A stretch of 59,270 nucleotides of DNA from Candidatus Zixiibacteriota bacterium (GCA_036481315.1 JAZGHS010000123.1:1-59270), one strand, 5' to 3'. Shown: positions 14,657 through 59,270, numbered from the stretch's first letter. Notes: generated from the letters alone by a model not told the origin. Program-made: numbers and translations.

Positions 14657-14744
14657 TCCGCATTAATATCAGCGTACCAGAGAAAAATTAAGTCTTCTTA
14701 TTAAGAATAGTATATGATTAATGATCAATCAACACTTATTTATG

Positions 14745-35007: not shown

Positions 35008-35041
35008 TCAGGAGCGCGGGGCTCCTGACCTACGACAGGGA

Positions 35042-35566: not shown

Positions 35567-35733
35567 ATCGTCCTCCCTTTTTTGCGCGTATCATAAGATA
35601 AGGATTGAAAACCGCTTGTCGAGTAAAATCGTCGGATCGCGGAGAAAGCGGGCGATAATTAGACGACAAAACCTGTTAAAAATCATTTGACTAAGAGGTC
35701 GATATACCGATACTTATTAGACAGGAGAGGAAT

Positions 35734-36972
35734 ATGTTTAGAAGAGGACTGACAATTTTAATTTCGGTAACGGTATTATTTGCCGGATGCAGCGATAAAA
35801 CCACCGAGCCGGGCGATCCGACGCCCATAAGAATAACAAGCCCGACCAACAACTCCACCTTGAGCGAGCCGGCAACGATCGTGGCGGCCGCCGGCGAAGG
35901 TTATGCGCTCGATCGTGTTGATTTCTATGTCGACGGCGATTCGGTCTGGACCGACTTTTATTCCCCGTACGGATATTACTGGAATGTCTACGTTTATTCG
36001 AGTAACACCCAACATACTCTCTTCGCGATAGGATATACCGCTGATAGCAGTTACACGTCGGCCTTAATAAATGTCGATGTTGCCTTTACCTCGGGGTTTG
36101 CGTTTTTATCGGTTTACGTTCCCAGTTCTCAGGCCTGCTATGGTGTCGTCAATTATCAAAATGTCATGTTCGCGGCCACCGGACCCGACGGCCTCGAGTT
36201 GATCGATATTTCGGATAAAGCGTCGCCAGACTATATCTCCCGCTACGATAGCCCCGGGCAGGCCATAAAATCCGACGTATCTTTTCCCTACGTCTTTATT
36301 GCCGACATGAGCGAAGGTGTAACCAGGGCAGATTTTTCCGATCCATATTTGCCTGTACAGCGGGGAGCATACACATCGCAGGGGTCGGTTAACGATGTTG
36401 CTGTTTCTGAAAACTATCTTTTCGTTGCAGAAAACGACGGGGTTAGCGTAGTTGGTTATTCGAATCCCGATAACATGAATTTCATCTCCAAGGTATCGAT
36501 GGCCGATCAGGATCAACCGCAATTCGTGGTTGCCCGAGGCGATACGGCATTCGTGGCCGCGATCGATAAATTTTATATCATAGACTTTACGATTCCGGCA
36601 TCGCCGCTAATTATCAGCACGTTCGCCACTCCGGGGCAGGCTAAAGGTGTGGCTGTTGACGGTAACCTGGCGTTTATCGCCGACGGCCCCGAAGGAGTAA
36701 TCGCGTTATCCATTGCCGATCCCACAAGCCCTGTCGAGGCGGGACGATATACAACAGGTCAGAATTTCTCCACGGTCGACGTATCGAATTATACGCTGTT
36801 CGCCGGCGCGCTTTCGGGGGGTGTTTACGCGTTGGATTACAGCCAGCCGGATACATTGACGTTTGCGCACCAGTTCGATACCGGCGATATGGTCTGGCAG
36901 GTTCACTCCGATCCGCCGTACCTGTATATTGCTACCAGCGGTAATGTCAATATCCTTCGCTATTTTAGATAA
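35734..36972 (+). CDS. LVIVD-repeat lipoprotein (no T9SS tail)
   Basis: Lipobox LFAGCS. N-terminal Ig-like region, then repeats (GLELIDISDKASPDYISRYDSPGQA.., ..IIDFTIPASP..). It ends ..NILRYFR without the NPFN..LLK tail. Confidence 0.75.
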   Translation: MFRRGLTILISVTVLFAGCSDKTTEPGDPTPIRITSPTNNSTLSEPATIVAAAGEGYALDRVDFYVDGDSVWTDFYSPYGYYWNVYVYSSNTQHTLFAIGYTADSSYTSALINVDVAFTSGFAFLSVYVPSSQACYGVVNYQNVMFAATGPDGLELIDISDKASPDYISRYDSPGQAIKSDVSFPYVFIADMSEGVTRADFSDPYLPVQRGAYTSQGSVNDVAVSENYLFVAENDGVSVVGYSNPDNMNFISKVSMADQDQPQFVVARGDTAFVAAIDKFYIIDFTIPASPLIISTFATPGQAKGVAVDGNLAFIADGPEGVIALSIADPTSPVEAGRYTTGQNFSTVDVSNYTLFAGALSGGVYALDYSQPDTLTFAHQFDTGDMVWQVHSDPPYLYIATSGNVNILRYFR

Positions 36973-37518: not shown

Positions 37519-37687
37519 AATTTACTTGCTATTTATCGATTATTTACGATATTATCGACGTCTTCGCATTGCTGGCGGGGTTTAATTTTAAGGCCCTATG
37601 AAGCGCGGAAAACTAAATGATGACTTAAATTAGGTGAGGTTCTCGGGTTTCGAGACTATTACCTTATTTAAAAACTGGAGATTGGAT

Positions 37688-45240: not shown

Positions 45241-46950
45241 ATGGCAAAAATGTCCAAGGATTTGACACCAAAATCACAATATGAGACCACCAGCAAAATC
45301 AGCATTGCATCGGAACTCAAAAAGTTTTCCGCCCCGAAGACCGATTTCAGAATCGGGGATAGCGATGAGATAGCGCTTGGCCGCGATGATCTACGGGCTC
45401 TATACGAAGTTGCCAAAGCGGTAAACTCGTCATTGATTCTGGATGAGATCCTGATTATCGTGATGAAGAAATCTATCGAATTGCTCAAGGCCGAAAGAGG
45501 CTTTTTGATGCTTCTCGATTCCGACGGGGAATTACAATTTAAAACCGCTCATAATATTAATAAAAGCGAACTGAAAAAAAGCGATCTTCAGATATCATCC
45601 TCAATCGCGGCCGGAGTCGTTCAGGACGGGAAATCGATTTACACCGCCGACGCCATGACCGACAAGCGATTCGCGCATAAACAATCGGTACTGGAGATGA
45701 ATATACGTTCGGCTATGTGTGTACCCTTGAGAATCAAAGACCAGATAATAGGAGTCGTTTATCTGGATAATTCCGCGGGAGCAAACATATTTTTAAAATC
45801 CGATCTGTACCTGTTTGAGTTATTCGCCGATCAGGCGGCTTTGGCAATTCATAACGCCCAATTATACTCCGACGTTTTCGATCTTCAAAGATTGCAGGAA
45901 GCCATTCTGGATAAAACCCCCGTTGGGATCATGGTTCTGGCCGAAAACGGAAGGATGGTATCCTATAATAACGTGGCGTATACCTTACTTCAAAAAGCAG
46001 ATCTTTTACCTATCGAAGACTCCGAGGAATTGGTGAATAATAATTTTCTAGAAAGGCTCTCGGAATCAGAAATAGAATTTTTCCGCGATAATATCGCCAA
46101 ATCCGCGTTTCAACCCGTTGAGATACTTTCGAGAAGATTGAAGACTCGGACCGAGGATATAGTATTCCGTTACAAGTTTTCTCCTTTTCTTCATGTCGAC
46201 GAGGGTTTCAACGGGAGGATTATAGTAATAGAGGATATCACCGAAAAAGTCCTTTTAGAGCAATTTTTAATTCTGTCGGAGAAGATGGCGGCTAAAGGGG
46301 AGATGGCCGCGGCGATCGGACACGAATTAAACAATTATCTAACCTCTATATCGGTCAACGCCCAGTTACTGAGCAAAGTAATTGAAAAGGGGCAAACCGA
46401 GAAAATCCCGGTGAAAGTTAACGCCATTCTCGACGGTATCGACAAGATGAAAAGGTTTACCACCGGGTTGATGGACTATTCCGCTCTGGAGGTGACAAAG
46501 TCTTATCACAACATCGTATCGGTAATCGACGAGGTTGTTTTCTTCGTCAAACCACTTGAGAAATTCAAGAAAATAACCGTCGAGGCCAACATCCAGCAAT
46601 CTATCCCCGAAGTCTCGATTGATGTCGGGCAGATAAATCAGGTCATTCTGAATCTCCTGATGAACGCCGCCGAAGCAATAGGGGATTCCGGGATTAAGAG
46701 AGGGCAGATTAATATCAATGTCAGGCTAGACGGGTGCTGCTTGCTGATTTTAATTTCGGATAACGGACCCGGAATAAGCGAAGAGATATTTTCCAATCTG
46801 TTTATGCCGCATATTACATCGAAAAAATCCGGCCATGGGCTGGGGCTTTCTACAAGTCTCAGGATAATGAAAAACCATGGCGGAGATATTTCGGTATCGA
46901 ACAACCAATCGGGGGGCGCCACTTTCACCGTGTCGCTTCCGTTGGAGTGA
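45241..46950 (+). CDS. GAF/PAS sensor histidine kinase
   Basis: GAF-like region (..RGFLMLLD.DGEL.F..A..). PAS-like region. H-box AAAIGHELNNYL, N-box LNLLMNAAEA, and G-boxes DNGPGI and GHGLGLS. Confidence 0.85.
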   Translation: MAKMSKDLTPKSQYETTSKISIASELKKFSAPKTDFRIGDSDEIALGRDDLRALYEVAKAVNSSLILDEILIIVMKKSIELLKAERGFLMLLDSDGELQFKTAHNINKSELKKSDLQISSSIAAGVVQDGKSIYTADAMTDKRFAHKQSVLEMNIRSAMCVPLRIKDQIIGVVYLDNSAGANIFLKSDLYLFELFADQAALAIHNAQLYSDVFDLQRLQEAILDKTPVGIMVLAENGRMVSYNNVAYTLLQKADLLPIEDSEELVNNNFLERLSESEIEFFRDNIAKSAFQPVEILSRRLKTRTEDIVFRYKFSPFLHVDEGFNGRIIVIEDITEKVLLEQFLILSEKMAAKGEMAAAIGHELNNYLTSISVNAQLLSKVIEKGQTEKIPVKVNAILDGIDKMKRFTTGLMDYSALEVTKSYHNIVSVIDEVVFFVKPLEKFKKITVEANIQQSIPEVSIDVGQINQVILNLLMNAAEAIGDSGIKRGQININVRLDGCCLLILISDNGPGISEEIFSNLFMPHITSKKSGHGLGLSTSLRIMKNHGGDISVSNNQSGGATFTVSLPLE

Positions 46951-46954
46951 CGTA

Positions 46955-49900
46955 GTGGACGATCGCCTTATCAAGGGGCGATACAAGCTGCTGGGATTAA
47001 CCGGCGAAGGAGGGCTCGCCCGTGTCTTCCGCGCCGTAGATAACTTTACAGATAATGAAGTTGCTGTAAAGGAGATTAGGGATGATGACCCGGCCGTAAT
47101 CGAATCGGTCGAAAGGGAATATCGATTCGCCGCCCTCAATAGTCATCCGTCCCTTGTTCCCACCTTATCGATATGCCGGGACAGCAAATCTGTTATTACG
47201 GTTATGCCTTTTATCGAGGGCATCGATTTACGTACATTCCCGAATCGTTGTTCGATGAATGAATACCAGATCGACCGGATCATTGTCTCTTTATTAGAAG
47301 CCGCCGCGTTTATTCATTTTTCCGGCCATATTTACAACGACTTCAAACCCGAAAACATACTGATTTCCGGGGATATAAAAGAGGGGTCCCGGAAAATCCC
47401 CCGGCTTGTGCTTCTGGATTATAATCTTATATCGGCTATCGGAGAGAACGTTTCCAAGCGAGGAACAATCGAATACGTGGCGCCGGAAATACTGCTCGGG
47501 CAACAGCCCGATCTATATTCCGATCTTTACTCCCTCGGAGTAGTAATCTACGAGCTTCTTTCAGGGGCGGTACCGTTCTCGTCGAAATCCACCGATAAGC
47601 TGATCAAGCTTATTACAGAGGACGGTTCGATCGATTATTCAAAGATACCCGAAAAATACAGGGATGGCTTAAGAGCTCTTCTCGCTAGGGATATCGCTCA
47701 AAGACCATCGGGTGCACGCGAGGCCGCCGGCACCTTTAGTCTTGAATCGATATTCGATTCGCTGTACCGGACGAGAATAGACCACTATCTTTCAGCGGGA
47801 ATTCCACCGTTCAACCGGGATCTCGCCGTAAGTTTCGAAAGCTATTTGAAGGGAATGTCCTGCAAGATTTTCTCCATCCGTTCGCTTAATCATAATCGCA
47901 TGGCGATTAATTATCTGGCAGCCGAGTATGAGTTGAGAGGTTACAACGTATGGCGAATCGGGCCGGAGATGAGACCGGATAACGCTTTAGATTATCTTAA
48001 GAAAATCAAATCGTGGCGAAATGACTACTCCGATGGGAAATCTATATTATTAATCGATCATCTCGAAGCTCTGGATAATACAGTGCTCTCATATCTGAGG
48101 AGCACGGCAGGCCCCGCTAACGGTCTTCCGGTAGCGGCGGGTGTCAATAGGTGGATCGAACCTGCTATTTCAACCGACGTTTTCGATCCTTTAAAAAATC
48201 AAACGAAAATCGGCGCCACCGCGACATCACTGAAAGCATACCTGAAAAAAGAAGATCTCGATTTTAACTTCGACGATCTTTCCCGCTGTTCAGGCGGTGA
48301 CCCGACTATGGTTTATCTTCACCTTAAATACGCTCTCCTGGAAAACGGTCCCGTCACGCTTTCTAAGAGTTTCGATGATCGCATACGAATCGAGGCCCTC
48401 CCTGTAACAGCGCGAGATAAGATAATCGCCCGGATATTCGATTCTCTGAGGGATGATCAAATCGACATACTAAAAAAACTCTCCGTTTGGGGAGATTCGA
48501 TCCCCATGCTCATCCTGGCGGCTTTAGGCCGCGGGAAACAGATGTTAATCGATGAGTTACTCAAGTCGGGACGTTTGATTCCCGAAAAGGACGCTGTATC
48601 TTTTTCGTCGGGTAATGCCAGGGATTTTGTTTGCGAAAGCGTACCTGATGAAGAGAAAAGACGTTATCACGGTTTCTGGGCCGAGGCTGTAGAAGAGTGG
48701 TTATCGGAGACCGACGATTACATCGAATCCGCCGCTTGCCATTGGGGAGGATCGGAGGATATTTGTCGGGGATATAAGGCTAATTATATTGCCGCGCTTG
48801 AGTTTTTCAAAAAGGGCGAGCTCTCAAAAGCGGAATTTTACGCCGATAAAACGCAGGTCTTGGCGGAGGCTGGTGGGGGCTCCGTCGCCGATTCCCTGGC
48901 TGTCTACGCTGACATTTATAAAGAGAAGGGCGATTATAGATCAGCTCGCGTGAAATACCTCGAGTTATTAAGAAATATCAGGCTCAAAGGAGACAAGGAG
49001 TTTGAAGCTAAAACGGATAAGAATCTCGGGGATTTATATCGGTCGATTAGGAAGACCAGAAAAGCGGTATATTATATCAACGCCGCGCTGAAACTATATA
49101 TGGAATTGGGTGATGATCAGGGTGTCGCCGATTGTAATAACAATATCGGATTGACTTACTGGATCGACGAACAATACGATAAAGCACTGGAATCATTTTC
49201 GAAAGCGTTTGAGGCAAATAGAAAAGTCAATAATCAGCGAGAACTTGCCAAAATTCAATCCAATCAGGGGATTATCAAGGATATTGTCGGAAAAACAAAA
49301 GAGGTTGCCGATCATTTCATCAAGGCGCTTCGCTACGCCTCGGAGTCCGATGACCCAAGGTTAGAAGCGCTGATTTCGAATAATCTCGGGTATTTTTATA
49401 TCAGGCAGGGTGAATACAAAGAGGCCAATAAGTATCTTCGCGCCACCCTGGCGATCTCGGAAAAAATAGGCTATACCGAGGGAGTTATAAACTCGCTTTC
49501 CAATCTGGGTTTGAGCTACTTACGGTCGGGCGATCTTTTCGCGGCTGTTGATTTCGACCAGAAAGCGCTTGAAACGGCAGAGTCGTTGGGAAGCAGGCAT
49601 CTCGCCGCCTCGGCGGAACTCTATCTGGCCGAGGCCTGTATCCTCATGGGGAATTACTCACTAGCCGATAGCGTTTTGAGTTCGATAGAAGCGGGTAAAG
49701 CGATCGAAGAAGATAAATCGTTGAAATCGCAAACAGAATTACTGCGCTCCGGATTGATGATCTCACTGGGGGACACATGTTCTGCACACGATTTCGCCGC
49801 GAGGGTTTTACTGGAAGCGGAATCGGTCGGAGATACGAGGCTCAAGATCGAGGCTGAACTCTCTTTAGCCAGAGCATTTCTCGATGATCGTAAACATGGC

Positions 49901-50413
49901 GCTTTGGTCGGATTGTCAGAGGCGGCGGAAACAGCATCGACCCTGGGACACGATGACCTTTTATCTGCCGCCGGTATTTTACTGGCCTCCTTTTATACTC
50001 TAAAAGAGGATTTTTTTAATGCCGAGGGTTGGCTGGATCGCGTTCTTTTATCCCAGGATCTTACCAGGGAGTCTCTTATCAAAGCGAAAATACTGGTCTC
50101 GGATCTTTATCGACTTAATGGAAGGTATGACGACGCTCTCGAGATCCTTTACGAAATCGAGAGTTTAGCGGCGGTCTCGGGATTTGTTCCTCTCGCTTTT
50201 AGAGCCGCGGTAATCTTATCCGAAATATTCCTGGCCTGTTCTAAACTTTCCAGACTCAAGGAAACTATCGATAGGGCTCTTTCCTATAGAGCCAAACTGC
50301 TCTCGGCGTTACCGGAATCCGCTTCCGCGTCAACTCTCGAACAGACATCATATATGAAACGTTTTAGTTCCGTAATTACGAAGACCGACAATAAAGTATT
50401 TTTAAGTGTCTAA
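46955..50413 (+). CDS. Atypical (non-RD) Ser/Thr kinase domain protein with long TPR-rich C-terminal region
   Basis: GEGGLARV, AVKE, YNDFKPEN (in place of HRDLKPEN), DYN (in place of DFG) and VAPE. Many TPR-like repeats in the C-terminal 600 aa. I chose the GTG at 46955, 8 nt after GGAG and 5 nt after the HK stop, over the overlapping track start at 46877. Confidence 0.8.
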   Translation: MDDRLIKGRYKLLGLTGEGGLARVFRAVDNFTDNEVAVKEIRDDDPAVIESVEREYRFAALNSHPSLVPTLSICRDSKSVITVMPFIEGIDLRTFPNRCSMNEYQIDRIIVSLLEAAAFIHFSGHIYNDFKPENILISGDIKEGSRKIPRLVLLDYNLISAIGENVSKRGTIEYVAPEILLGQQPDLYSDLYSLGVVIYELLSGAVPFSSKSTDKLIKLITEDGSIDYSKIPEKYRDGLRALLARDIAQRPSGAREAAGTFSLESIFDSLYRTRIDHYLSAGIPPFNRDLAVSFESYLKGMSCKIFSIRSLNHNRMAINYLAAEYELRGYNVWRIGPEMRPDNALDYLKKIKSWRNDYSDGKSILLIDHLEALDNTVLSYLRSTAGPANGLPVAAGVNRWIEPAISTDVFDPLKNQTKIGATATSLKAYLKKEDLDFNFDDLSRCSGGDPTMVYLHLKYALLENGPVTLSKSFDDRIRIEALPVTARDKIIARIFDSLRDDQIDILKKLSVWGDSIPMLILAALGRGKQMLIDELLKSGRLIPEKDAVSFSSGNARDFVCESVPDEEKRRYHGFWAEAVEEWLSETDDYIESAACHWGGSEDICRGYKANYIAALEFFKKGELSKAEFYADKTQVLAEAGGGSVADSLAVYADIYKEKGDYRSARVKYLELLRNIRLKGDKEFEAKTDKNLGDLYRSIRKTRKAVYYINAALKLYMELGDDQGVADCNNNIGLTYWIDEQYDKALESFSKAFEANRKVNNQRELAKIQSNQGIIKDIVGKTKEVADHFIKALRYASESDDPRLEALISNNLGYFYIRQGEYKEANKYLRATLAISEKIGYTEGVINSLSNLGLSYLRSGDLFAAVDFDQKALETAESLGSRHLAASAELYLAEACILMGNYSLADSVLSSIEAGKAIEEDKSLKSQTELLRSGLMISLGDTCSAHDFAARVLLEAESVGDTRLKIEAELSLARAFLDDRKHGALVGLSEAAETASTLGHDDLLSAAGILLASFYTLKEDFFNAEGWLDRVLLSQDLTRESLIKAKILVSDLYRLNGRYDDALEILYEIESLAAVSGFVPLAFRAAVILSEIFLACSKLSRLKETIDRALSYRAKLLSALPESASASTLEQTSYMKRFSSVITKTDNKVFLSV

Positions 50414-50420
50414 TTAAAAA

Positions 50421-50438
50421 GGGCCGCTTACGCGGCCC
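50421..50438. terminator. Shared hairpin terminator between convergent genes
   Basis: GGGCCGC-TTAC-GCGGCCC. The AAAAA on the left gives a U-tract for the minus-strand small ORF. It lies 8 nt after the kinase stop. Confidence 0.6.
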
Positions 50439-50456
50439 GGTGTCTCAAGTAGAAAA

Positions 50457-50534
50457 TCAGGAACCTGCCCCAATATAACCACCCGGGGCAATTCTTTCCT
50501 CGAGTTCCTCAATGACAAGGACTAATTCTACCAT
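50457..50534 (-). CDS. Candidate 25-aa peptide gene (MVELVLVIEELEERIAPGGYIGAGS)
   Basis: ATG 6 nt after GGAGGA. TATAAT box (50569-50564, minus strand) 29 nt upstream of the ATG. The terminator hairpin begins 18 nt after the TGA. It is too short for the ORF track. Confidence 0.4.
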   Translation of the reverse strand: MVELVLVIEELEERIAPGGYIGAGS

Positions 50535-51105
50535 TACCCTTCCTCCTTCCGGAGCTGTTGCGGATTATACCCTGTGCAGATCCTGCCGAGGCAATCTCCG
50601 GTTTAATTGCCACACCGGACCTAAATTTGTTTAAAAATGAAACGATTATCAGTCGATCTGTCAAGAGGAAAATGCAAACTATTACAAAAATGATGAAAAG
50701 GATTTCACCATGCTACCCCCCCCGGAAAAAACGTCAATCAGCTAACTGCATGATACATAATTACTTATATTTTTAGACGGGATTTCGTCAACGGGTTATC
50801 GAATTTCTTTATTATTATGTCAACTTCTTGCTATATATTATGTTAACTAATCCACGGTCAAGGAAACCGGCGCTTGCCATGGAATAACGCGGGTAATTAT
50901 TGAACTTTTCAAAGATTATAATCCGGCACTTTTTAATAAATATGTAATTTATAGACACTTTTTTCCGTTAGCTCAAGCAGGCTGGAATAAACAATGCTCT
51001 TATTGATTTGATAAAAAGGGTGTTTGACCGGATCTATCGATTTCTATGTCATTAAAGGGTGCCTAATGAGGCGATAGGCCCTACATAAAATTGTACAAAA
51101 AATAC

Positions 51106-51133
51106 TTGACATAACGCTCTTAAATCTTATATT
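51106..51133 (+). promoter_or_regulatory. Sigma70-type promoter candidate ahead of the cohesin/dockerin cluster
   Basis: TTGACA (51106-51111), 16-nt spacer, TATATT (51128-51133). It leaves a ~285-nt leader before 51418. Confidence 0.45.
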
Positions 51134-51417
51134 TTCCCATGCCTGAAGTAATTCCGCGGTAACTACGTGGTACTTGACGCTTCGCTTCAATGGCCAGGAA
51201 TTGGGTGGATTAAGTAAAACAATTTCTTAAAGGTGTTACGGTCAAGGGGGAGGTTTTTTCCTCGGCCTTGAAAGGACAGCTTTTATGATTACTATCGACG
51301 GTTCTGTTTCCGAGAAAACCTTGATCAGGTGGTTTGTTGCAGTTTCAGAAGAAGCGAAAATTGGTTATAAATATAGTCATCAACCCATAATAACTGAGTA
51401 TCTCGCAAAAGGGGAAA

Positions 51418-52197
51418 ATGGGAGAAAAGCTTAGTATGAGAAGAACTGTCGAAGCCTTTGTAGTTTTGCTGTTTACGACATTCGCGAGCGTTTATGGACA
51501 GGAGTATTGCGTCCCCGAGGATGGGCAGTATCCGCCTGAAGCCGACGTGACATTGACAATCGGTTCGCCGTGCGACTCATCGGAGATTGTCGGCATTCCA
51601 ATCTATCTCGATAACCCTTGTCCTGTTGGCGGTTTCGAAATGGAGATCGTCCTAACCGACCCCAACTTGGGCGTATATTTTGATGAGACGAACCCCGATG
51701 TCGCCGATCTGATTGGCAGCAGAAATACCGAATGGGGGTTTTTCAGCTTCAATGTGAATAATCCGACGACAATTACCGTTCTGGCCATAGGTCCCGGAGG
51801 ATCTCAGCCTAGTTTGCCGCCAGGCACTGGTCTTTTATTCACAGTGCATCCCAGCCTGGAGGGCACGGTCGATAATTGCCAGATGGTTAGGTTCGGGGCT
51901 ATTGATCACGTTTTCGACGAATCGGGTTATGTCGAATATGGCAGGATTCACGAACAGGGCACTCTTTGTATCGGCTGTGAACCGTCCTGGAGAAGGGGCG
52001 ACGCCAATCGTTCCGGCACTCTTAATATCGCCGATGTCATAACCTTATTTAATCACCTCAGAGGTTCCCCCATATGTTTCGGAGGATGTATTTGTACCGG
52101 CGATTTTAACAATTCTGGATCTATTAATATCTCCGATGTTATCGATATGTTCACGTATTTGAAAGGACAGGGCGAACAACCTGTGCCCTGTAATTGA
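51418..52197 (+). CDS. Secreted cohesin-like + dockerin-like protein (no T9SS tail)
   Basis: Signal peptide. Cohesin-like SEIVGIPIYLDNPCPVGGFEMEIVLTDPNL. C-terminal dockerin pair GDANRSGTLNIADVITLFNHL and GDFNNSGSINISDVIDMFTYL. It ends ..PVPCN. Confidence 0.75.
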   Translation: MGEKLSMRRTVEAFVVLLFTTFASVYGQEYCVPEDGQYPPEADVTLTIGSPCDSSEIVGIPIYLDNPCPVGGFEMEIVLTDPNLGVYFDETNPDVADLIGSRNTEWGFFSFNVNNPTTITVLAIGPGGSQPSLPPGTGLLFTVHPSLEGTVDNCQMVRFGAIDHVFDESGYVEYGRIHEQGTLCIGCEPSWRRGDANRSGTLNIADVITLFNHLRGSPICFGGCICTGDFNNSGSINISDVIDMFTYLKGQGEQPVPCN

Positions 52198-52338
52198 TTT
52201 AGTAGTTTTTTGTTTACGAATATGATTTTAAAAATACCTGATTTCTTTGTGAAGGGGGTGAGAGCCTAGAGAAAAGAGAGACTATTAAGAGGGGAATTCG
52301 TATGTTTGCGTGGAAAGGGAGTTCCATATCCGGCAAAC

Positions 52339-52364
52339 AAGGCGTTAATTGTTAACGCCTTTTA
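52339..52364 (+). terminator. Hairpin (terminator/attenuator) between the first two cluster genes
   Basis: AAGGCGTTAA-TTG-TTAACGCCTT followed by TT(A). It sits about 35 nt upstream of the AAGGAG RBS of the 52400 gene. Confidence 0.45.
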
Positions 52365-52399
52365 CACAATAGTTTTGATGATTATTTAAGGAGTAAAAC

Positions 52400-54616
52400 A
52401 TGAAAAAATTGTTGCTGTTGGCTTTAGCTGTCGCTTTAATGTTCAGCTTAGCTTCGGCTCAAAACGCTAAGATGGTGGTTGGTCCGCTCAATGGTGATGA
52501 CGCCGGCGAATTAATCGTGACAAATGGTTCGGCCGTTACTATTCCCGTATTTGTGCGTACCGCTCCTGGTATCAACATTATCGGTGGTCACTGGGCGATT
52601 GCCACTAAAGATCAGCATGTCGCTTCCCGTGACGGCTGGGGTTACGATTTCTATCCGTTCACCGATCAGGGAGAGGGCAATGATTGGCAGTCGATGACTG
52701 TTCTTGCCGCCACAGCTGATCTCGTAATACCGGATTATACATACCAGGGATTACTCATGGTTAAGGATTTCCCCAGAGATCCTTTCCCGGAATGGGGAAT
52801 TAATACCGATGGCGCATGGTGGCAGGTCGCCGAAATATACATGACCACCACCGAAGAGAATGAATTTGATCTTCCCTTCTGTGACGCTTTCGAGATTGGT
52901 ACAGATGGCGGTCCTGGTGGCAACGGTGCCATGGTATGGGCCGAATTCAGCCAGGGAGAGCTGGATCCTGAAAGTATCGAATACAGTTTTTCCTGCCTGA
53001 CTTTCACCAGTAACACCGATCCCGTATGGTGTGAGCTTACTTCAGAGTATTGCGGTGATGCCGGTTTCGAAGTTTGCTTCGATCTCTGCGGCACCGATGC
53101 CAACCTCGATAACGACCTGCATATCGTTCAGGTCGGCGGCGAAGGCACTTACACCGAAGCAGAAGGTGGTGAAGGCGGCGTAACTTCCGGTACATGGTGT
53201 GGTACTCTTGAAGCTGGTACTTATGTTCTCGATTTCGAACTTCAAGATGGTGCCGGCCCTCCATTCCCGATGTCGTTTACCGTAAATGTTGGTGATATCG
53301 CTATGGATATCGCTAATGTCAGCGGATTCGGCGGCGGAACGGTTTCTGTTCCGGTAACTCTTCATACCTGCGCGTTTGAAATGGGCGGCCTGGAAGCTTA
53401 TGTCGGTTGGGATCCTACAGCCGTAACACTGACAGGCGTTACTCCTACCGGTCGTATTGACGACGGTAACGAGTATTTCAATGTCAACTTCAGTGACCCC
53501 TGCGAAGAGTGTCCTGATGATGACGCGGTAAGGATCACCTGGATCTCCGATATCAATAATGGTGTCGATCACGCTCCGGCTTATCCGGGCGACGATCCTA
53601 TCGTTATGCTGCATTTCGCGATTTCCGATGATCTTCCTTGGGGAATGGTTATTCCGATTAATTTCCTGATCCCGCATTATTCGGACAACACGGTATCCGA
53701 CGAAAGCGGTTATGTTTGGTTCCGTCCTGCGTTGACCGATGGTTCGATCACAGTTATCGATCCTTCGACCTACAAGGGTGACCCCAACATGAACGGTTGG
53801 TTCTATGAAGTCGGTGACGCGGTATTGGTTGCCCGTCGTCTGATCAGTGGCTACGGCGTCTGGTCTGAGAACGGTTCCGGCGATGACGCTATCCAGGAAG
53901 CTTCGTCTGACCTGAATAACAACGGTGTTACTGATGTTGCCGACCTCGTTCGCTTCATCAATATCATTAATGGTACTATCAATCCTCCGAAACTAGATCC
54001 TGCCTCTGCCGTTGCTGAGGTTAGTATCTCTTCGGTGATTGAGGATAATATTGAAGTTACCATCAATTCCGGTTTGGATATTGGTGGCGTACTTCTTTCG
54101 ATCGACCATTCCGGAGTTGAGATCGGCACACCGGTCGCCAACGGCATGAACTTCCTCGCGGAAGACAAAGACGGCGTCTTAAACGTTGTCGTTTATTCCA
54201 TCGAGGGTAATACCCTTGCCGCCGGCAATACGAATGTCATCTCCATCCCGGTTATCTCGAACAACAATGGTTCGATTGAGATCGTGGAAGCTTCATCTGC
54301 CGACGCTTACGGACGTCTGCTGGAGACCACCGCTTTGGTGATTACTCCTCTGCCGACTGAGTACGCTGTTGAGCAGAATTACCCGAACCCCTTCAACGCC
54401 AAGACCATGATCAGCTTCGATATGCCTGAGGCCAATGACGTTACCGTAGATATCTACAGCGTCACCGGTCAGCTAGTCGAGTCGATCTCCGGTCATTATG
54501 AAGCCGGTTCGCATTCGGTCAATTGGGATGCTTCTAATGTTGCTTCCGGTGTTTACTTCTACAAAGTAGCCACCGACAGCTTCTCGCAGACCATGAAAAT
54601 GACCTTGCTGAAGTAA
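52400..54616 (+). CDS. Secreted multi-module cohesin-like/dockerin-like protein with T9SS tail
   Basis: Signal peptide ..SLASAQ. The N-terminal domain is homologous to that of the 37688 gene. Cohesin-like GGGTVSVPVTLHTCAFEMGGLEAYVGWDP. Dockerin-like GDPNMNGWFYEVGDAVLVARRL and SDLNNNGVTDVADLVRFINII. A second cohesin-like module follows. Tail QNYPNPFNAKTMISFDMP..GVYFYKVATDSFSQTMKMTLLK. Confidence 0.85.
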   Translation: MKKLLLLALAVALMFSLASAQNAKMVVGPLNGDDAGELIVTNGSAVTIPVFVRTAPGINIIGGHWAIATKDQHVASRDGWGYDFYPFTDQGEGNDWQSMTVLAATADLVIPDYTYQGLLMVKDFPRDPFPEWGINTDGAWWQVAEIYMTTTEENEFDLPFCDAFEIGTDGGPGGNGAMVWAEFSQGELDPESIEYSFSCLTFTSNTDPVWCELTSEYCGDAGFEVCFDLCGTDANLDNDLHIVQVGGEGTYTEAEGGEGGVTSGTWCGTLEAGTYVLDFELQDGAGPPFPMSFTVNVGDIAMDIANVSGFGGGTVSVPVTLHTCAFEMGGLEAYVGWDPTAVTLTGVTPTGRIDDGNEYFNVNFSDPCEECPDDDAVRITWISDINNGVDHAPAYPGDDPIVMLHFAISDDLPWGMVIPINFLIPHYSDNTVSDESGYVWFRPALTDGSITVIDPSTYKGDPNMNGWFYEVGDAVLVARRLISGYGVWSENGSGDDAIQEASSDLNNNGVTDVADLVRFINIINGTINPPKLDPASAVAEVSISSVIEDNIEVTINSGLDIGGVLLSIDHSGVEIGTPVANGMNFLAEDKDGVLNVVVYSIEGNTLAAGNTNVISIPVISNNNGSIEIVEASSADAYGRLLETTALVITPLPTEYAVEQNYPNPFNAKTMISFDMPEANDVTVDIYSVTGQLVESISGHYEAGSHSVNWDASNVASGVYFYKVATDSFSQTMKMTLLK

Positions 54617-54640
54617 TTCGAAGTTTCTTCGGAATTACGG

Positions 54641-54670
54641 GGATAAGAGAGGGTTTTCCCTCTCTTATCC
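54641..54670 (+). terminator. Strong hairpin after the 52400..54616 gene
   Basis: GGATAAGAGAGGG-TTTT-CCCTCTCTTATCC, a perfect 13-bp stem 25 nt after the stop. No clear U-tract follows. Confidence 0.55.
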
Positions 54671-54964
54671 TCAAAATTAAACTTCAAGCGTAAAGGAGGG
54701 GGTGGTTAATGGCGCGGATTTGCAATTGATTTGTTTTTTTTTGCAGGAGTAGTTTGTGAACAGTAGTACTTTGTTTCTTTCAGCCGGTTACGGCCATTAC
54801 ATTTCAATAAAATCGATTGTTTTACTACAAATTATATTATTCGGGAAGATCAAGTATAATAGTGAGTTATATGTTCTTAACCTTATGATGCTGAAAAAGT
54901 TATACTGGCAAAGGCATATATTTTGCTCATCTTTTAGTTTGGAGAAATATGAGGGAGTTTTCAT

Positions 54965-55834
54965 ATGCGAAAAATTAGCGAAAAAGGGGGAATTTTGAAG
55001 GCCACAATCGGTTTTTTAATGTTAGCAATTTGCCTGGCGAATTCGGGCCAAGCCCAATCACCTGATAGTCTTATGATTTCCAGCGCCAGCGGGCCTCCCG
55101 GAGGATCCGCTGTCGTTTCAGTCTTTCTGAAAAATACCCAATTTTCGGTAAGTGGATTCACTGCCAGGATTGTTTTCGCCGACTCCACTATCGCCGTCTT
55201 TTCCGACTTGGAGCGTGGCGACGATGTAGTCGATTTTGAACATTTCAACTGGGTTCTATCCGACGGAACCTGCAGGATCGTGGGATTGGATAATCTCCCC
55301 GGAGGTGATAACCCGTCGCCCTTACCCATTGGGATTCATGAGCTTGCAAAAATCCATATCGACATAGCCGAAAACGCTCCGTGGGGCGAGATGGATACGA
55401 TATATTTCGCCTCCGATGAGTTTCCGCCCGATGGGGATAACTCGATATCCGACTCGACCGGATACATATTTGAAATTCCCACCATGGTATCGGGCATGCT
55501 TCTTCTGGATATTTTCAACGATGTGGACGGTTCCCATGCCGTTTTGCCATTAGGTATAGAACTAAAGCAGAATTATCCCAACCCTTTTAATGCTCAAACG
55601 ACCATATCATTCGAACTATCCGAACGCGCCGAGAACACGTCGGTGAAAATTTACGACATGGTCGGGCGTTTGGTCAGGACATTTAACTGGCGGGATCTGC
55701 CAGCGGGTTTGCACAATACTGTCTGGAACGGCTCTGATACTCGAGACAATATTGTGTCATCCGGCATTTATTTTTTCAGGTTGGAAGTGGATTCGCATCC
55801 CGTTCAAACCATGAGAATGACGCTACTTAAGTAG
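54965..55834 (+). CDS. Secreted cohesin-like protein with T9SS tail
   Basis: GAGGGAG RBS and signal peptide. Cohesin-like GPPGGSAVVSVFLKNTQFSVSGFTARIVFADS...GDNSISDSTGY. Tail QNYPNPFNAQTTISFELS..GIYFFRLEVDSHPVQTMRMTLLK. Confidence 0.8.
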   Translation: MRKISEKGGILKATIGFLMLAICLANSGQAQSPDSLMISSASGPPGGSAVVSVFLKNTQFSVSGFTARIVFADSTIAVFSDLERGDDVVDFEHFNWVLSDGTCRIVGLDNLPGGDNPSPLPIGIHELAKIHIDIAENAPWGEMDTIYFASDEFPPDGDNSISDSTGYIFEIPTMVSGMLLLDIFNDVDGSHAVLPLGIELKQNYPNPFNAQTTISFELSERAENTSVKIYDMVGRLVRTFNWRDLPAGLHNTVWNGSDTRDNIVSSGIYFFRLEVDSHPVQTMRMTLLK

Positions 55835-55908
55835 TTTGAAATCGGTAGTTTTTTGAAGATAATAATTAAGATTCGAGCCCGATTTTTTCGTGGCCAGGAG
55901 GGAATGAA

Positions 55909-56739
55909 TTGAGAAAATTTCTACCCGTTGTATCATTTTTCTCATTATTTCTATATTGTTGCTTTCCTGTATGGGGACAGGAAATCTCCGAAATCGATAC
56001 CATTAGTGTTTCCGGATTCGAAGGATATCCCGGGGATACGATTTTAGCGCCCGTCGATCTTGTAAATACTTTCGATGTTACCGGTTTCAGCCTCCGGATT
56101 CTCTATGACTTCAGCGCGTTTTTGCCTCTTGAGGTTGTTATTGTTGATAGATCAGCTCATTTTGACTTTTTCGGCGCAAATCTCACCGAACCGGGTGTTA
56201 TCGGGTTTGTAGCCACGTCGATGATTCCTCGCGATAATGTGATTCCACCGGGGAGCGGATCTATTGCCCTGATGACGATCCTGATCAGGGATGAAGCGTT
56301 CCCGGGGTCTTACGATTTTATATTCGAGAATGTTGACGAGAACTCTTACGATAACAATCTCAGCGATACCAATGCCACGCTTATTGTTCCTGTACTCGCC
56401 GACGGCGCTATAGATGTTTTATCTCAGACCCTAATCGGCGATAACTCTTCGGGGCCGTCGGAATTCGAGTTGAGCCAGAATTATCCCAACCCGTTTAATA
56501 TGAAAACGACAATTTCGTTTTCCGTGAAGAATCCGGGGCATGTAGATCTCGAAATTTATGATATTTTGGGACAAAGGGTAGCCACTTTGTTTTCCGGTTA
56601 CGTCGAGGCCGGGATACGCAGTTTTGATTGGGACGGCGAAATATCGGCCGGTAAAGAACAATCATCGGGTGTCTATTTCTATAGATTGAAAACCATGTGG
56701 GGGGAATCCGTAACCAAAAGGATGACGCTACTAAAATGA
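55909..56739 (+). CDS. Secreted cohesin-like protein with T9SS tail
   Basis: TTG start after AGGAGGG. Signal peptide. Cohesin-like GYPGDTILAPVDLVNTFDVTGFSLRILYDFSAFLP...YDNNLSD. Tail QNYPNPFNMKTTISFSV..GVYFYRLKTMWGESVTKRMTLLK. Confidence 0.8.
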   Translation: MRKFLPVVSFFSLFLYCCFPVWGQEISEIDTISVSGFEGYPGDTILAPVDLVNTFDVTGFSLRILYDFSAFLPLEVVIVDRSAHFDFFGANLTEPGVIGFVATSMIPRDNVIPPGSGSIALMTILIRDEAFPGSYDFIFENVDENSYDNNLSDTNATLIVPVLADGAIDVLSQTLIGDNSSGPSEFELSQNYPNPFNMKTTISFSVKNPGHVDLEIYDILGQRVATLFSGYVEAGIRSFDWDGEISAGKEQSSGVYFYRLKTMWGESVTKRMTLLK

Positions 56740-56752
56740 TAGGGTTAGCGAT

Positions 56753-58870
56753 ATGAAGAAATTATTTCTTCTCTTGATTGTCGGAACGATTTTGGCGGCT
56801 GGTTGGTCTGACGCCAGCGCGCAGATTTACTCCGACCAGGATACCATGGCCTTAATGGACGCCTACGGTAATCCGGGCGATACGGTTGATGTTTATTTCA
56901 ATATGATCAATACCACAGTGGCCGTGGCGGGGGTTTTTCATCGAATAGTATATGATGAAAACATCCTGGAGGCCGTAAACGTGGAATGTGTGGATAGGGG
57001 TTGCGAGTTTCCATTGTTGGGAAGCAATCTTACCGTTCCCGGCGTTGTTCAATTCTCCATGTATGATTTGTCCGGCGAGGTAACCATTCCGAGGGGCGAG
57101 GGACCGGTGGCGAAAGTCACTTTCGCCGTAAGCCAGTTTGTTGCCCCCGGTACCAATATTCTCCTTGAATTCGAGGATGATTGGCAGAGTTTAAATGGTT
57201 GGGCGGATTCCATTCCGGAAAACCCGAACCTGATAGTCCCCATTCTCATTCCGGGAAATTTCCAGGTGGGCGGTGGACCTAATAATATGGCACCGGTTAT
57301 AGGTAATATCGCAGGTCAGCAGGTAGCCGAGGGGCAGATACTGCAATTTTCGGTAACCGCTCATGATTTCGATGCCGATCCTATTACGTTAACTGCTCTC
57401 GATATTCCTCTCAACGCTACTTTCCCGCAGGTTCAGGGCGATTCGATGGTGATAGGGACATTTGTGTTTAGTCCCAATTTTGACCAGGGACCGGATACCG
57501 TAATAGTAACTTTCACGGCCACCGACGATCATAATAATGTAACCACCAGACCGGTTCAGATAGTCATACTCGACCAACCAAACAATATTATGAGGGTGGT
57601 ATCCAATCAGGGAGGGATACCCGGGGCCGATCTTCGCCCCATGAACATTAACCTGTTCAATACGAGCCCCATCTACGGTTCGCAATTCGAGATTTTATAC
57701 GATCCCGAACAAATCGATGTCTGGAGTGTCAATTCAACGTATCGATGCACCAATATGTGGTTCAACTCAAATGAGCCCGATCCCGGCAGGATAATAGTAG
57801 TTATATTTTCCGTGGGCAGTGATACGATAGCGGCGGGCGATGGTCCGCTTGTCGAACTTGTTATAAACGTGAACTCGTCGGCTTCGTTCGGCCAAACCGG
57901 TATTCAATTGATTGAAGCGACCGAGGTCATTGATTCGGCCGGAACGAGTAAAGAGCTTACCGCCGAAAACGGCTATTTCACCGTCGATCCATTCGGGGAC
58001 GCCAATTTGGATGGTCTTGTTACGGTCGGTGATTGCGTATCTATAGTGGCGTATATTATCGGACGGCTGGAATTCAGCGAAAGGCAGTTTGACGCCGCCG
58101 ATATCGACAGTTCAGGATGGGTAAATATCGGAGATCTTCAGAGCATCATAAATGTGATTCTAGAGGTTGTCACCCCCCGATTGTCTTATCCCTTCGACGA
58201 TCCTCTTGTCAGCGTGGAGTTGATAAAGGATCGGGTTCCATCAGGCGATATTCTCGATATACCTCTTTATACGGTAATTCAAGAGGAAGCGTCGGCGGTA
58301 CAGTTCGAGGTTTCCTATAACGCTAATAAGATGACCGGACTGGAGATAGTAAAGGGTGATATTGCCTCGGACATGACTCTTGATTACACCATTTCCAACG
58401 GCGGGATCAAGGGGATATTGTATAATTTAAGCGGGGCAAGTATCGGCCCCGTGTCGGGCGATCTGTTCGATATTGCATTTAGAATAGACTCGGGCGATTT
58501 TGATCCTGATTTCGATATTGAACTAAGCGAATTTTTGGTCGTAAACCCCACCGCTGGTTTTATGCCGGTGGAGATAAAAGGACGTCTTCCGGAGAGTTTC
58601 CTGCTCTCGCAGAATTACCCCAATCCTTTTAACGCCAATACTAATATTCGATTCGATCTGCCGTCCGAGGGATGGGCGGAGCTTTCGGTTTATGATCTAT
58701 TGGGACGCAAAATAACCGTTCTTCTAAATGAATATCTTCCAGCTGGCAGTCACCTGGTTACCTGGGATGGACGAGCCGGCGATGGCAATATGATGGCAAC
58801 GGGTGTTTACTTCTATCGCCTTAAGGCCACGAATTTTGACAAAACAAAGAAGATGCTTTTGATGAAGTAA
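56753..58870 (+). CDS. Secreted protein with three cohesin-like modules, a cadherin-like module, a dockerin-like module and a T9SS tail
   Basis: Starts 13 nt after the previous stop. Cohesin-like GNPGDTVDVYFNMINTTVAVAGVFHRIVYD. Cadherin-like NMAPVIGNIAGQQVAEGQ..FSVTAHDFDADPITL. Second cohesin-like IPGADLRPMNINLFNTSPIYGSQFEILYDP. Dockerin-like GDANLDGLVTVGDCVSIVAYI and ADIDSSGWVNIGDLQSIINVI. Tail QNYPNPFNANTNIRFDLP..GVYFYRLKATNFDKTKKMLLMK. Confidence 0.85.
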   Translation: MKKLFLLLIVGTILAAGWSDASAQIYSDQDTMALMDAYGNPGDTVDVYFNMINTTVAVAGVFHRIVYDENILEAVNVECVDRGCEFPLLGSNLTVPGVVQFSMYDLSGEVTIPRGEGPVAKVTFAVSQFVAPGTNILLEFEDDWQSLNGWADSIPENPNLIVPILIPGNFQVGGGPNNMAPVIGNIAGQQVAEGQILQFSVTAHDFDADPITLTALDIPLNATFPQVQGDSMVIGTFVFSPNFDQGPDTVIVTFTATDDHNNVTTRPVQIVILDQPNNIMRVVSNQGGIPGADLRPMNINLFNTSPIYGSQFEILYDPEQIDVWSVNSTYRCTNMWFNSNEPDPGRIIVVIFSVGSDTIAAGDGPLVELVINVNSSASFGQTGIQLIEATEVIDSAGTSKELTAENGYFTVDPFGDANLDGLVTVGDCVSIVAYIIGRLEFSERQFDAADIDSSGWVNIGDLQSIINVILEVVTPRLSYPFDDPLVSVELIKDRVPSGDILDIPLYTVIQEEASAVQFEVSYNANKMTGLEIVKGDIASDMTLDYTISNGGIKGILYNLSGASIGPVSGDLFDIAFRIDSGDFDPDFDIELSEFLVVNPTAGFMPVEIKGRLPESFLLSQNYPNPFNANTNIRFDLPSEGWAELSVYDLLGRKITVLLNEYLPAGSHLVTWDGRAGDGNMMATGVYFYRLKATNFDKTKKMLLMK

Positions 58871-58949
58871 CCCGGTAACCGTTTATTTCGCGGGGGCGTG
58901 ATAATGGTAATAACGGTAATACCGAAATTTGGCTATTCTTGAGGCGGTA

Positions 58950-59270
58950 ATGAAGATAATAAAGATTTCTTTAACTGTACTTGTTTTTATCGGTTTTACT
59001 TATTCGCTGTCGTCGGCGCAGATGGTGGAGTCGCTTTACGCTGATTCCTCGTTTTCGAGTATGCCGATCGACTCCGCAGCCAATTGCTATGGTCCTCCCG
59101 ACGGCACGGTCGCTCATATAGACAGTAATCTGGCCAATTACGAAATATGGACTTTCGATTTCGACAGTACTTTTAGCGCAGGATTACCGATAATATCATC
59201 GCAGATTTTCATCACCCATTATCAAGCGGGATGGGTTGACGATACGCTGGTCATTGAGTATTTCGACGGT
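58950..59270 (+). CDS. Secreted hypothetical protein, 5' part (runs off window end)
   Basis: ATG after GAGGCGG. Signal peptide MKIIKISLTVLVFIGFTYSLSSAQ. The frame stays open for 107 codons to the last base. It is not in the ORF track because no stop is reached. Confidence 0.6.
   Translation, partial: MKIIKISLTVLVFIGFTYSLSSAQMVESLYADSSFSSMPIDSAANCYGPPDGTVAHIDSNLANYEIWTFDFDSTFSAGLPIISSQIFITHYQAGWVDDTLVIEYFDG

Follow-up and report, generated by a model that had tools for sequence, protein, structure and literature searches.

The 3' part of a 59,270-nt stretch of DNA from a Candidatus Zixiibacteriota bacterium (GCA_036481315.1, JAZGHS010000123.1:1-59270; the whole stretch is hereafter called the window) carries a cluster of genes for secreted proteins built from cohesin-like and dockerin-like modules, most of which end in a T9SS (type IX secretion system) sorting domain. 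Cohesin-dockerin pairs classically serve as high-affinity connectors in the cellulosomes of Gram-positive bacteria, while their many non-cellulosomal relatives are almost without assigned function. Comparison with related genomes identified the cluster as the 5' scaffold half of a locus that is conserved across Zixibacteria.

Gene content and domain architecture of the cluster

Open reading frame (ORF) calling revealed six co-directional genes, g1 to g6, all located on the + strand between positions 51418 and 59270. The first gene, g1 (51418-52197, 259 aa), encodes a signal peptide, a cohesin-like module (aa 40-188, nt 51535-51981) and a Cys-rich dockerin (aa 189-252, nt 51982-52173). The product of g2 (52400-54616, 738 aa) consists of a signal peptide, an N-terminal module of no detectable family (aa 22-200), an immunoglobulin-like (Ig) domain (aa 205-295), a cohesin (aa 296-452), a dockerin (aa 455-526), a third cohesin-like module (aa 535-648) and a T9SS type A C-terminal domain (CTD, aa 651-738). 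The two short genes g3 (54965-55834, 289 aa) and g4 (55909-56739, 276 aa, TTG start) each specify a signal peptide, one cohesin (aa 33-180 and 27-170, respectively) and a T9SS CTD (aa 199-289 and 186-276). The fifth gene, g5 (56753-58870, 705 aa), encodes a signal peptide, the cohesin Coh1 (aa 26-172), a Big_9 Ig domain (aa 177-277), Coh2 (aa 278-410), a dockerin (aa 412-472), Coh3 (aa 482-610) and a T9SS CTD (aa 616-705). Only the 5' end of g6 (58950-59270) is present, since window and contig both stop at 59270, 321 bp into the gene; the 107 aa encoded there cover a signal peptide and the beginning of a ~170-aa N-terminal domain.

Within the window, the module count of the cluster comes to eight cohesins (cohesin-like modules included), three dockerins and four T9SS tails. 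One common plan, signal peptide-N-terminal module-Big_9 Ig-cohesin-dockerin-cohesin-like-T9SS tail, is shared by g2, g5 and a distant g2 paralogue outside the cluster (37634-39898), the N-terminal module being a cohesin in g5 and having no detectable relative in g2. Accordingly, the g2 and g5 families aligned over 558 columns (hhalign 100%, E 2.8e-49). Apart from the cluster and this paralogue, searches with our own hidden Markov models (HMMs) found no further cohesin or dockerin in the 59-kb window.

The original prediction, made from the sequence alone, had described six co-directional + strand genes at these positions, a signal peptide on every product, paired dockerin segments in three products, T9SS tails on four, and no catalytic signature. 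All of this was borne out: the ORFs were recovered, the six N-termini fitted signal peptides, the dockerin pairs were found in g1, g2 and g5, the tails lie at the extreme C-terminus of g2-g5, and no catalytic family was matched in any of the six genes (Pfam, NCBIfam). The proposed one to three cohesin-like modules per complete product gained support from Pfam, profile and fold comparisons, except that aa 22-200 of g2 are not detectably cohesin.

Identity and fold of the cohesin modules

Pfam Cohesin (PF00963, cut-off 24.1 bits) matched three stretches of g5 at 72.3 bits, and its score for the g4 orthologue in the related locus L002, 37.8 bits, also exceeded the cut-off. The modules of the cluster that remained below this threshold are tied to the g5 cohesins because profile comparisons link them. 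The g4 cohesin matched Coh1 of g5 (1.4e-17), the g3 cohesin matched the g2 cohesin HMM (1e-17), g3 and g4 proved to be paralogues over their full length (1e-30), and residues 62-257 of g1 aligned with Coh2 plus the dockerin of g5 (hhalign 91%, E 1e-6). Between single modules, Coh2 of g2 and Coh1 of g5 gave 98%, Coh3 and Coh2 of g5 gave 95%, and the g1 cohesin and Coh2 of g2 gave 66%; by these comparisons, Coh3 of g5 is a diverged cohesin. The Ig domain of g5 was recognised by Big_9 (26.7 bits, Pfam).

Structure models were made for g5 and g1. A profile of 38 g5 orthologues matched the CipC cohesin (2vn5, 4e-6), the CelS dockerin (1daq, 7e-5) and a FlgD/PorU-type tail in the PDB. The AlphaFold2 model of g5 had a mean predicted local distance difference test (pLDDT) score of 81.7, and its best single-domain matches in Foldseek were the cohesins 6kgc_A (template modelling (TM) score 0.87, root mean square deviation 2.0 A) and 4ums (0.82). 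When the full-length g5 model was used, the top ranks were generic multi-Ig arrays (PrgB, ciliary proteins) with TM scores <0.2, so that single-domain matches alone are informative. For g1, the top 20 Foldseek matches were all cohesins (TM 0.58-0.71). Cohesin topology, a nine-stranded jelly-roll beta-sandwich, versus a generic Ig/FN3 fold had been set beforehand as a refuting test, and both structure prediction and profiles gave cohesin. The PDB profile matches together with the Foldseek match to 6kgc_A thus argue that the modules are true relatives of cohesins and dockerins and not generic Ig folds. Pairwise identity among the eight cohesins of the cluster is only 16-34%, whereas each averages 43-71% identity to its own orthologues.

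Predicted calcium-binding loops of the dockerin modules

The dockerins of g1, g2 and g5 each consist of paired segments in which a 12-residue EF-hand-like Ca loop is followed by a helix. Dockerin_1 (PF00404, cut-off 22.9 bits) matched g5 at 23.9 bits, the g1 orthologue profile matched the PDB dockerin 2y3n_B (E 0.009), and the dockerin profiles matched each other at 93-97% (hhalign). With a canonical loop defined by D/N at positions 1, 3, 5, 9 and 12, the two Ca loops of g5 read DANLDGLVTVGD and DIDSSGWVNIGD, those of g1 DANRSGTLNIAD and DFNNSGSINISD; in g2 the second loop is DLNNNGVTDVAD, and the first, DPNMNGWFYEVGD, carries a one-residue insertion. Positions 1, 3, 5 and 12 are canonical and invariant in the orthologues of g5 and g1; in g5, for example, D416, N418, D420, D427, D450 and D461 are invariant in 38 orthologues, and the model places helices at 425-435, 443-449 and 459-469. 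From these loop residues a canonical Ca-binding geometry is predicted, the lack of which had been named beforehand as a refuting result. Dockerins and tails are the best-conserved modules of the cluster, with 66-74% identity to orthologues. Ten Cys residues are invariant among g1 orthologues.

Signal peptides and type IX sorting domains

By inspection, each of the six N-termini begins with a K/R-rich segment, continues into a hydrophobic core and has a cleavage-type motif of the form A/G-Q. The tails of g2, g3, g4 and g5 exceeded the cut-offs of both sorting-domain models, with 47.6, 33.4, 43.5 and 42.4 bits, respectively, for TIGR04183 (NCBIfam, cut-off 23 bits) and 47.1, 34.1, 28.7 and 27.9 bits for PF18962 (Por_Secre_tail; Pfam, cut-off 27 bits). 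They end 1-12 residues from the stop, and all four proteins have both the tail and the signal peptide that characterise T9SS cargo. NCBI labels the Zixibacteria orthologues as "T9SS type A sorting domain-containing protein". With the same Pfam and NCBIfam models, no T9SS CTD was found in g1 or in g6-type proteins.

The residue after the predicted signal-peptidase site is Gln in the six cluster proteins without exception, and also in several further secreted proteins of the window, the survey having covered the genes at 51418, 52400, 54965, 55909, 56753, 58950, 37634, 719(-), 31208(-) and 33344(-). Gln after the cleavage site is the Bacteroidetes "Q-rule" (N-terminal pyroglutamate), which is apparently also at work in this Zixibacteria-like genome.

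Conservation of the locus and its downstream genes in relatives

About 70 full-length orthologues were found for g5 (700-713 aa, 45-84% identity), about 75 for g2 and 17 for g1 (56-80% identity), and all named orthologues of these three genes come from Zixibacteria metagenome-assembled genomes (MAGs). Synteny was reconstructed from exact-protein look-ups in nine loci (window/L001, L002 (CP070742.1), L004, L005, L086, L087, L088 and L089). All nine share the gene order g1, g2, one to three cohesin-tail genes, g5 and a Big_9-repeat gene, with the same module strings; the neighbourhood is thus conserved in related MAGs, as the original prediction had suggested checking. A contig scan with the g5 alignment yielded 80 loci, almost all of them tail-only matches (QNYPNPFN) in Ignavibacteria, Calditrichia, Bacteroidota and others, with no usable synteny. 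Outside Zixibacteria, the C-terminal dockerin-cohesin-like-T9SS tail part of g5 (residues ~393-444 to 705) has relatives of 26-30% identity in Bacteroidota and Ignavibacteriae MAGs (L009, L013, L019, L056 and L062). To judge from these sequences, the dockerin-cohesin-CTD unit may be widespread in the Fibrobacteres-Chlorobi-Bacteroidetes (FCB) group.

The relatives show how the locus continues beyond g5. In L089 the g5 orthologue is immediately followed by P0228, with whose N-terminus the 107-aa fragment of g6 shares 62% identity; the fragment also matches the downstream protein d1 of L002 (4e-32). The 5,529 residues of P0228 make up a signal peptide, a novel domain of ~170 aa, 56 Ig repeats of the Big_9 type and a dockerin at the C-terminus, and the protein has no T9SS tail; its N-terminal domain had no Pfam match. 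The gene after g5 in L004 encodes 2,657 aa with 26 repeats and ends in a dockerin (Dockerin_1, 33 bits), and the giant gene of L005, although fragmented, also has a dockerin at its end. All three fully assembled copies of the giant gene (L089, L004 and L005) thus end in a dockerin. L002, in which g6 appeared to lack a dockerin, was rejected as a counter-example, because its gene contains an N-run assembly gap (~14560-14700).

Assemblies tend to break in this Ig-repeat gene: four contigs end inside it (window, L086, L087 and L088), the "complete" CP070742.1 carries the run of Ns, and in the long-read assemblies L004 and L005 apparent frameshifts interrupt both g2 and the giant gene. Most published models of the giant protein are therefore truncated, and the window contig almost certainly broke within the Ig repeats.

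After the giant gene, L089 and L004 encode a 492-aa dockerin-cohesin-like-tail protein (g7) and an S8 subtilase, which ends in Dockerin_1 in L004 and in a Cys-rich, dockerin-like segment of the g1 flavour in L089. Further downstream, L089 encodes a 1,344-aa protein with no Pfam match and the same Cys-rich dockerin-like end. In all, the complete L089 locus has ~9-10 cohesins and seven dockerins. The description of the cluster as "enzyme-free" with "cargo unknown" was accordingly a truncation artefact, because the contig ends so early in g6 and the locus continues in relatives with a giant fibre, a dockerin-cohesin-CTD protein and an S8 subtilase.

The Cys-rich dockerin flavour, recognisable by Cys residues that are conserved in the linker and behind the second helix, is common to g1, the S8 subtilase (28121-30688 in L089) and the 1,344-aa protein (31279-35313 in L089). 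The dockerins of g2, g5 and g6 are, by contrast, of the conventional kind.

No glycoside hydrolase (GH) or carbohydrate-binding module (CBM) was matched by Pfam or NCBIfam in the window genes, or matched or annotated in the eight related loci, a finding whose scope is the loci themselves. This bears on the idea of a true cellulosome, a complex for degrading polysaccharides, with its glycoside hydrolase genes located in another part of the genome. Such a system would agree with modules that are nearest to clostridial type I cohesins and dockerins in sequence and structure, and scaffoldin clusters of cellulosome producers are likewise enzyme-free (PMC5934362). However, all nine loci examined lack CBM and GH, as dockerin proteins the locus encodes an Ig fibre, a subtilase and one protein of 1,344 aa without a Pfam match, and the cohesins are non-redundant, unlike those of enzyme-recruiting scaffoldins. 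We therefore give a cellulosome almost no credence, and in the strict sense, which includes GH and CBM features, it was rejected for these loci.

Proposed assembly of a cell surface complex

We consider it fairly probable that the locus builds a T9SS-anchored, Ca-dependent cohesin-dockerin complex on the outer membrane for adhesion to particles or cells and localised proteolysis, not for cellulose breakdown. We infer the surface location, the binding partners, the adhesive role and the outer-membrane route of the tail-less dockerin proteins from domain content and gene order; cohesin-dockerin partners are probably encoded side by side. All products would first be exported by Sec, with predicted cleavage before Gln. 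The T9SS would then carry g2-g5 (and g7 in relatives) across the outer membrane by means of their type A CTD and fix them to the surface, as it does type A cargo in Bacteroidota, so that about eight mutually dissimilar cohesins would be on display. Dockerins would plug into specific cohesins in a Ca-dependent manner, with g3 and g4 as anchors and g1 (cohesin-dockerin), g2 and g5 as adaptors that could be chained. By architecture, g1 is a candidate adaptor, g3 and g4 are candidate single-cohesin surface anchors and g5 is a candidate adaptor and anchoring scaffoldin. The giant fibre with its 26-56 Ig repeats would be tethered by the C-terminal dockerin and project its novel N-terminal domain distally; its reach of >200 nm is our own estimate from the repeat number at ~4 nm per Ig domain, not a computed value. 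Finally, the S8 subtilase (L004 and L089) and the 1,344-aa protein (L089) would be tethered alongside through their dockerin-like ends. Since the dissimilar cohesins roughly match the locus dockerins in number, a defined hetero-complex is suggested rather than an open recruiting scaffold.

The subtilase could also be taken as the key to the system, which would then be a mainly proteolytic, cellulosome-like machine that recruits dockerin-bearing peptidases from the whole genome, the giant Ig protein serving as a substrate-binding or spacing element. In agreement with this, the locus enzyme has a dockerin or dockerin-like C-terminus in both L004 and L089, published in silico models attach peptidases in the same way (PMC8542988, PMC6461901), and the window encodes another secreted S8 subtilase at 23559. 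The latter, however, carries IPTL-CTERM and not a dockerin, and there is no other dockerin in the 59 kb. Moreover, one recognisable enzyme stands among about nine genes, of which the fibre gene is the constant neighbour, and cohesins that are all different and about as numerous as the locus dockerins argue against an open recruiting scaffold. We regard a recruiting protease machine as unlikely.

The cluster had originally been proposed to form a self-assembling scaffold displayed through the T9SS. Self-assembly is plausible because three proteins combine cohesins with a dockerin, and the four sorting domains agree with display; what did not hold is that it is enzyme-free with cargo unknown, as relatives encode candidate cargo. 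Taken to its limit, self-assembly would give a self-polymerising surface coat or sheath, in which g1, g2 and g5 chain head-to-tail on the g3 and g4 anchors and the structure itself is the function. That three of the five proteins have both module types and that the Coh-Ig-Coh-Doc-Coh-CTD plan is strictly conserved in two paralogous families would suit a coat, but the dockerin-only proteins in the same locus of relatives (fibre, S8 subtilase and 1,344-aa protein) fit cargo anchoring better, and we hold a coat to be distinctly improbable.

Several points weigh against the surface complex that we favour. Cohesin-dockerin binding is a prediction from the modules. Below the Pfam cut-offs are the cohesins of g2 (21.9 bits) and g4 (21.4 bits) and the dockerins of g1 (19.0 bits) and g2 (13.8 bits), and Cohesin had no match in g3 and g1. 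The N-terminal module of g2 (aa 22-200) reached <=1% in hhalign against all cohesin and Ig profiles of the locus and had no Pfam match. The AlphaFold2 model of g1, built from 18 close orthologues, has a pLDDT of 59, with the dockerin part <50, and is usable for the coarse fold only. The cargo genes are seen only in relatives, as orthologues of 45-70% identity, and not on this contig, and the adhesive role of the fibre is deduced from architecture. No T9SS machinery (SprA/Sov, PorV, PorU or GldK-N/PorK-N) was found within the 59-kb window, the rest of the genome not having been searched. Lastly, g1, g6 and the dockerin-bearing enzymes have no T9SS tail that would take them across the outer membrane, and the model fails if these proteins are periplasmic.

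The weak family scores would agree with a reading in which no pairing takes place at all and the products are independent T9SS-exported Ig-like surface proteins, with the EF-hand pairs as Ca-stabilised structural or ligand/carbohydrate-binding modules and with clustering by tandem duplication. The window is, furthermore, generally rich in T9SS-tailed proteins (more than ten), and Peer et al. reportedly noted in 2009 that many non-cellulosomal cohesin and dockerin modules are without a demonstrated partner. On the other hand, cohesin-only (g3, g4) and dockerin-only (g6, S8 subtilase) proteins lie side by side in a fixed order in nine loci, the fold matches cohesin specifically and not generic Ig, and few parts are as well conserved as the dockerins with their Ca-loop residues. 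This makes an absence of pairing highly doubtful.

Within the surface-complex model, tail-less dockerin proteins might use another outer-membrane route, bear an unrecognised signal, or leave the cell bound to tail-bearing cohesin partners. The last possibility leads to the reading of a stoichiometrically defined docking machine across Zixibacteria, in which about nine dissimilar cohesins have one cognate dockerin each, and g1, the ~5,500-aa fibre, the S8 protease and the 1,344-aa protein bind CTD-bearing cohesins in the periplasm and hitch-hike through the type IX translocon. We consider this rather improbable; it is domain logic that points to hitch-hiking export, at low probability. If true, it would be the first described piggy-back export for the T9SS, and cohesin-dockerin pairing would be an export-targeting device as well as an assembly device. 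The export of large dockerin proteins without a sorting domain poses a concrete question for T9SS biology.

Comparison with known cohesin-dockerin systems

The closest working analogue is the sca cluster of Ruminococcus flavefaciens (ScaC-ScaA-ScaB-CttA-ScaE), where the dockerins of ScaB and of the non-enzymatic CttA attach these two proteins to ScaE (PMC5934362). Both are co-directional sets of non-catalytic cohesin and dockerin genes, with ScaE as a single-cohesin anchor, ScaC, ScaA and ScaB as adaptors combining both modules, and CttA tethered by a C-terminal dockerin; insertions in Ca loops occur there as in the g2 dockerin. By architecture, the same logic is seen here in Coh-CTD proteins (g3, g4), proteins with cohesin plus dockerin (g1, g2, g5) and the dockerin-tailed g6, g8 and g9 of relatives. 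The sca cluster differs in belonging to a Gram-positive Firmicute that uses sortase for attachment to peptidoglycan, whereas the T9SS CTD suggests anchoring to a diderm outer membrane. Its cargo consists of ~200 dockerin-bearing carbohydrate-active enzymes and a cellulose-binding protein, compared with an Ig fibre of 2,600-5,500 aa and a subtilase, and its cohesins fall into a few redundant groups, whereas each is unique here.

Among diderms of the FCB group, the cloacimonadotal 'Ca. Stygibacter' was proposed in silico to have a cohesin scaffoldin with a T9SS CTD, to which S8 and C25 peptidases and GHs would be bound by their dockerins (Williams et al. 2021, PMC8542988). A T9SS-CTD cohesin protein and a dockerin-bearing S8 peptidase are common to both systems, and there, as here, the proposal is in silico only. 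However, 'Ca. Stygibacter' has one scaffoldin of 3,755 aa with tandem cohesins and CBM2/CBM3, and dockerin enzymes of GH18, GH57 and C25, whereas the phylum-wide Zixibacteria locus encodes five or more cohesin proteins of small to medium size, arranged in a fixed, operon-like order, together with a giant dockerin fibre, and lacks CBM and GH. The 'planctosome' of freshwater Planctomycetes, a proposed peptidase-binding cohesin-dockerin complex (Andrei et al. 2019, PMC6461901), is likewise non-cellulosomal, occurs in a host with an outer membrane and has an anchor, an adaptor with dockerin and cohesin, and peptidase cargo. It differs by a lamin-tail anchor instead of a T9SS CTD, by M12B and M14 peptidases, and in that neither a giant fibre nor a conserved multi-gene locus was described. 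In Omnitrophota, dockerins on a giant ORF were suggested to function as adhesins (PMC10066038).

The best sequence and structure matches came from clostridial type I pairs, namely CipC Coh1-Cel5A Doc of C. cellulolyticum (2vn5) and CohA2-Doc0917 of C. acetobutylicum (6kgc), whose dockerins also have duplicated 12-residue Ca loops followed by a helix; identities are 10-21%, and host proteins, secretion route and cargo are different. With regard to the fibre, SprB of Flavobacterium johnsoniae is a giant T9SS surface adhesin for attachment or motility that has its own T9SS CTD. Both are very long, repetitive Ig-like surface filaments of T9SS organisms, but the Zixibacteria fibre has a dockerin in place of the CTD, and its attachment, possibly also its export, would depend on a cohesin partner.

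The original prediction had held that this is not a described system. In the papers searched, nothing links Zixibacteria with dockerin, T9SS/type IX secretion or a cellulosome-like system of this sort, and nothing was found on Latescibacteria with cohesin plus dockerin. The claim is nevertheless true only in part, in view of the in silico precedents in Cloacimonadota and Planctomycetes and because enzyme-free sca clusters are normal. The general idea is thus not without precedent, but the locus is unusually clean and testable. Its distinguishing features are the phylum-wide fixed order, the small cohesin-tail anchors, the Coh-Ig-Coh-Doc-Coh-tail adaptors, the giant dockerin fibre and the non-redundant cohesins. 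It offers a compact, strongly conserved test case, with one invariant promoter, ~70 orthologue sets and a scaffold of five genes, as against about nine genes in relatives. If our model is true, an uncultured phylum common in sediments and groundwater tethers a fibre of several thousand residues and one or more proteases to a diderm surface via the T9SS. The orthogonal, mutually dissimilar cohesin-dockerin pairs could also serve as parts for synthetic protein assembly.

Promoter, leader and intergenic elements

Upstream of g1, a region of ~1,000 bp (50414-51417) contains no credible ORF and has a GC content of 35-39%, compared to 47-52% in the genes. An AT-rich non-coding stretch with a promoter had been predicted here; both the composition and the promoter found support, while the length is ~1 kb instead of ~880 bp. 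We predict the cluster promoter at 51097-51133 (+), where an A-tract is followed by the -35 element TTGACA (51106-51111), a 16-nt spacer and the -10 element TATATT (51128-51133). TTGACA-N16-TATATT scored 11/12 in the scan. The upstream region contains 17 promoter-like sites compared to 15.3 +/- 4.2 in shuffled sequences, and since such matches are no more frequent than by chance, the promoter call rests on conservation more than on the motif match: AAAA...CTTGACA-N16-TATATT is invariant in all seven syntenic loci aligned, whose flanks are ~41% identical.

The promoter is followed by a 5' leader of ~280 nt up to the g1 start. The start of this leader, within 51097-51175, is conserved across loci with the consensus TTGCCTAAAGTAGCTCCGC..TAACTTCG and is followed by ~250 nt of poorly conserved 5' untranslated region. 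The conserved part could be an operator or a leader element; it matched no Rfam family. Rfam gave nothing at the gathering threshold in the window, with matches in the 1-kb upstream region that were sub-threshold only and lay on the terminator hairpin of the kinase gene, and no tRNA was found in the window.

Just past the g2 stop, positions 54641-54670 (+) form a hairpin with a perfect 13-bp stem, GGATAAGAGAGGG-TTTT-CCCTCTCTTATCC. The hairpin is present in six loci, where three pairs are kept by changes on both sides, and it lacks a U-tract. It is possibly a terminator, an attenuator or an RNA-stability element between g2 and g3, and it may split the cluster into the expression units g1-g2 and g3-onward. 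Further into the g2-g3 spacer (~54715-54755) lies a conserved block, TGCAAATGATTTGTT..TTGTTGCAGGAGTAG, with the inverted repeat TGCAA...TTGCA, which has the look of an internal promoter or of a site bound by a regulator. A promoter of the sigma-54 type in this spacer was rejected, as the -24 GG is not conserved.

Genomic surroundings

Directly upstream of the cluster are a Ser/Thr kinase-TPR gene (46877) and a GAF histidine kinase gene (45241). This pair is kept in eight of the nine loci, the exception being L002, and may regulate the cluster. Altogether, 9499-16391 (-) and 46877-50413 (+) encode large Ser/Thr kinase-TPR proteins, three in all, as well as an FHA-GAF-SpoIIE (PP2C) phosphatase. 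Otherwise, the window consists of ordinary chromosomal DNA, with genes for SecF, Rieske/cytochrome b, a multihaem cytochrome and PdxJ.

The distant g2 paralogue (37634-39898, +) encodes an N-terminal module, an Ig domain, a cohesin, a degenerate dockerin, a cohesin-like module and a CTD. It matched g2 over the full length (phmmer 3e-66) and was also recognised by our own HMMs and by the tail and Big_9 models. Two secreted proteins, the S8 subtilase at 23559-25610 and a DUF7901 protein at 25823-27916, end in IPTL-CTERM. As they share the window with more than ten T9SS-tailed proteins, two surface-sorting systems coexist. Just upstream of the paralogue, 31208-36972 encodes three adjacent LVIVD beta-propeller proteins, two of them with T9SS tails and one with a Big_7 domain and a lipoprotein-like N-terminus.

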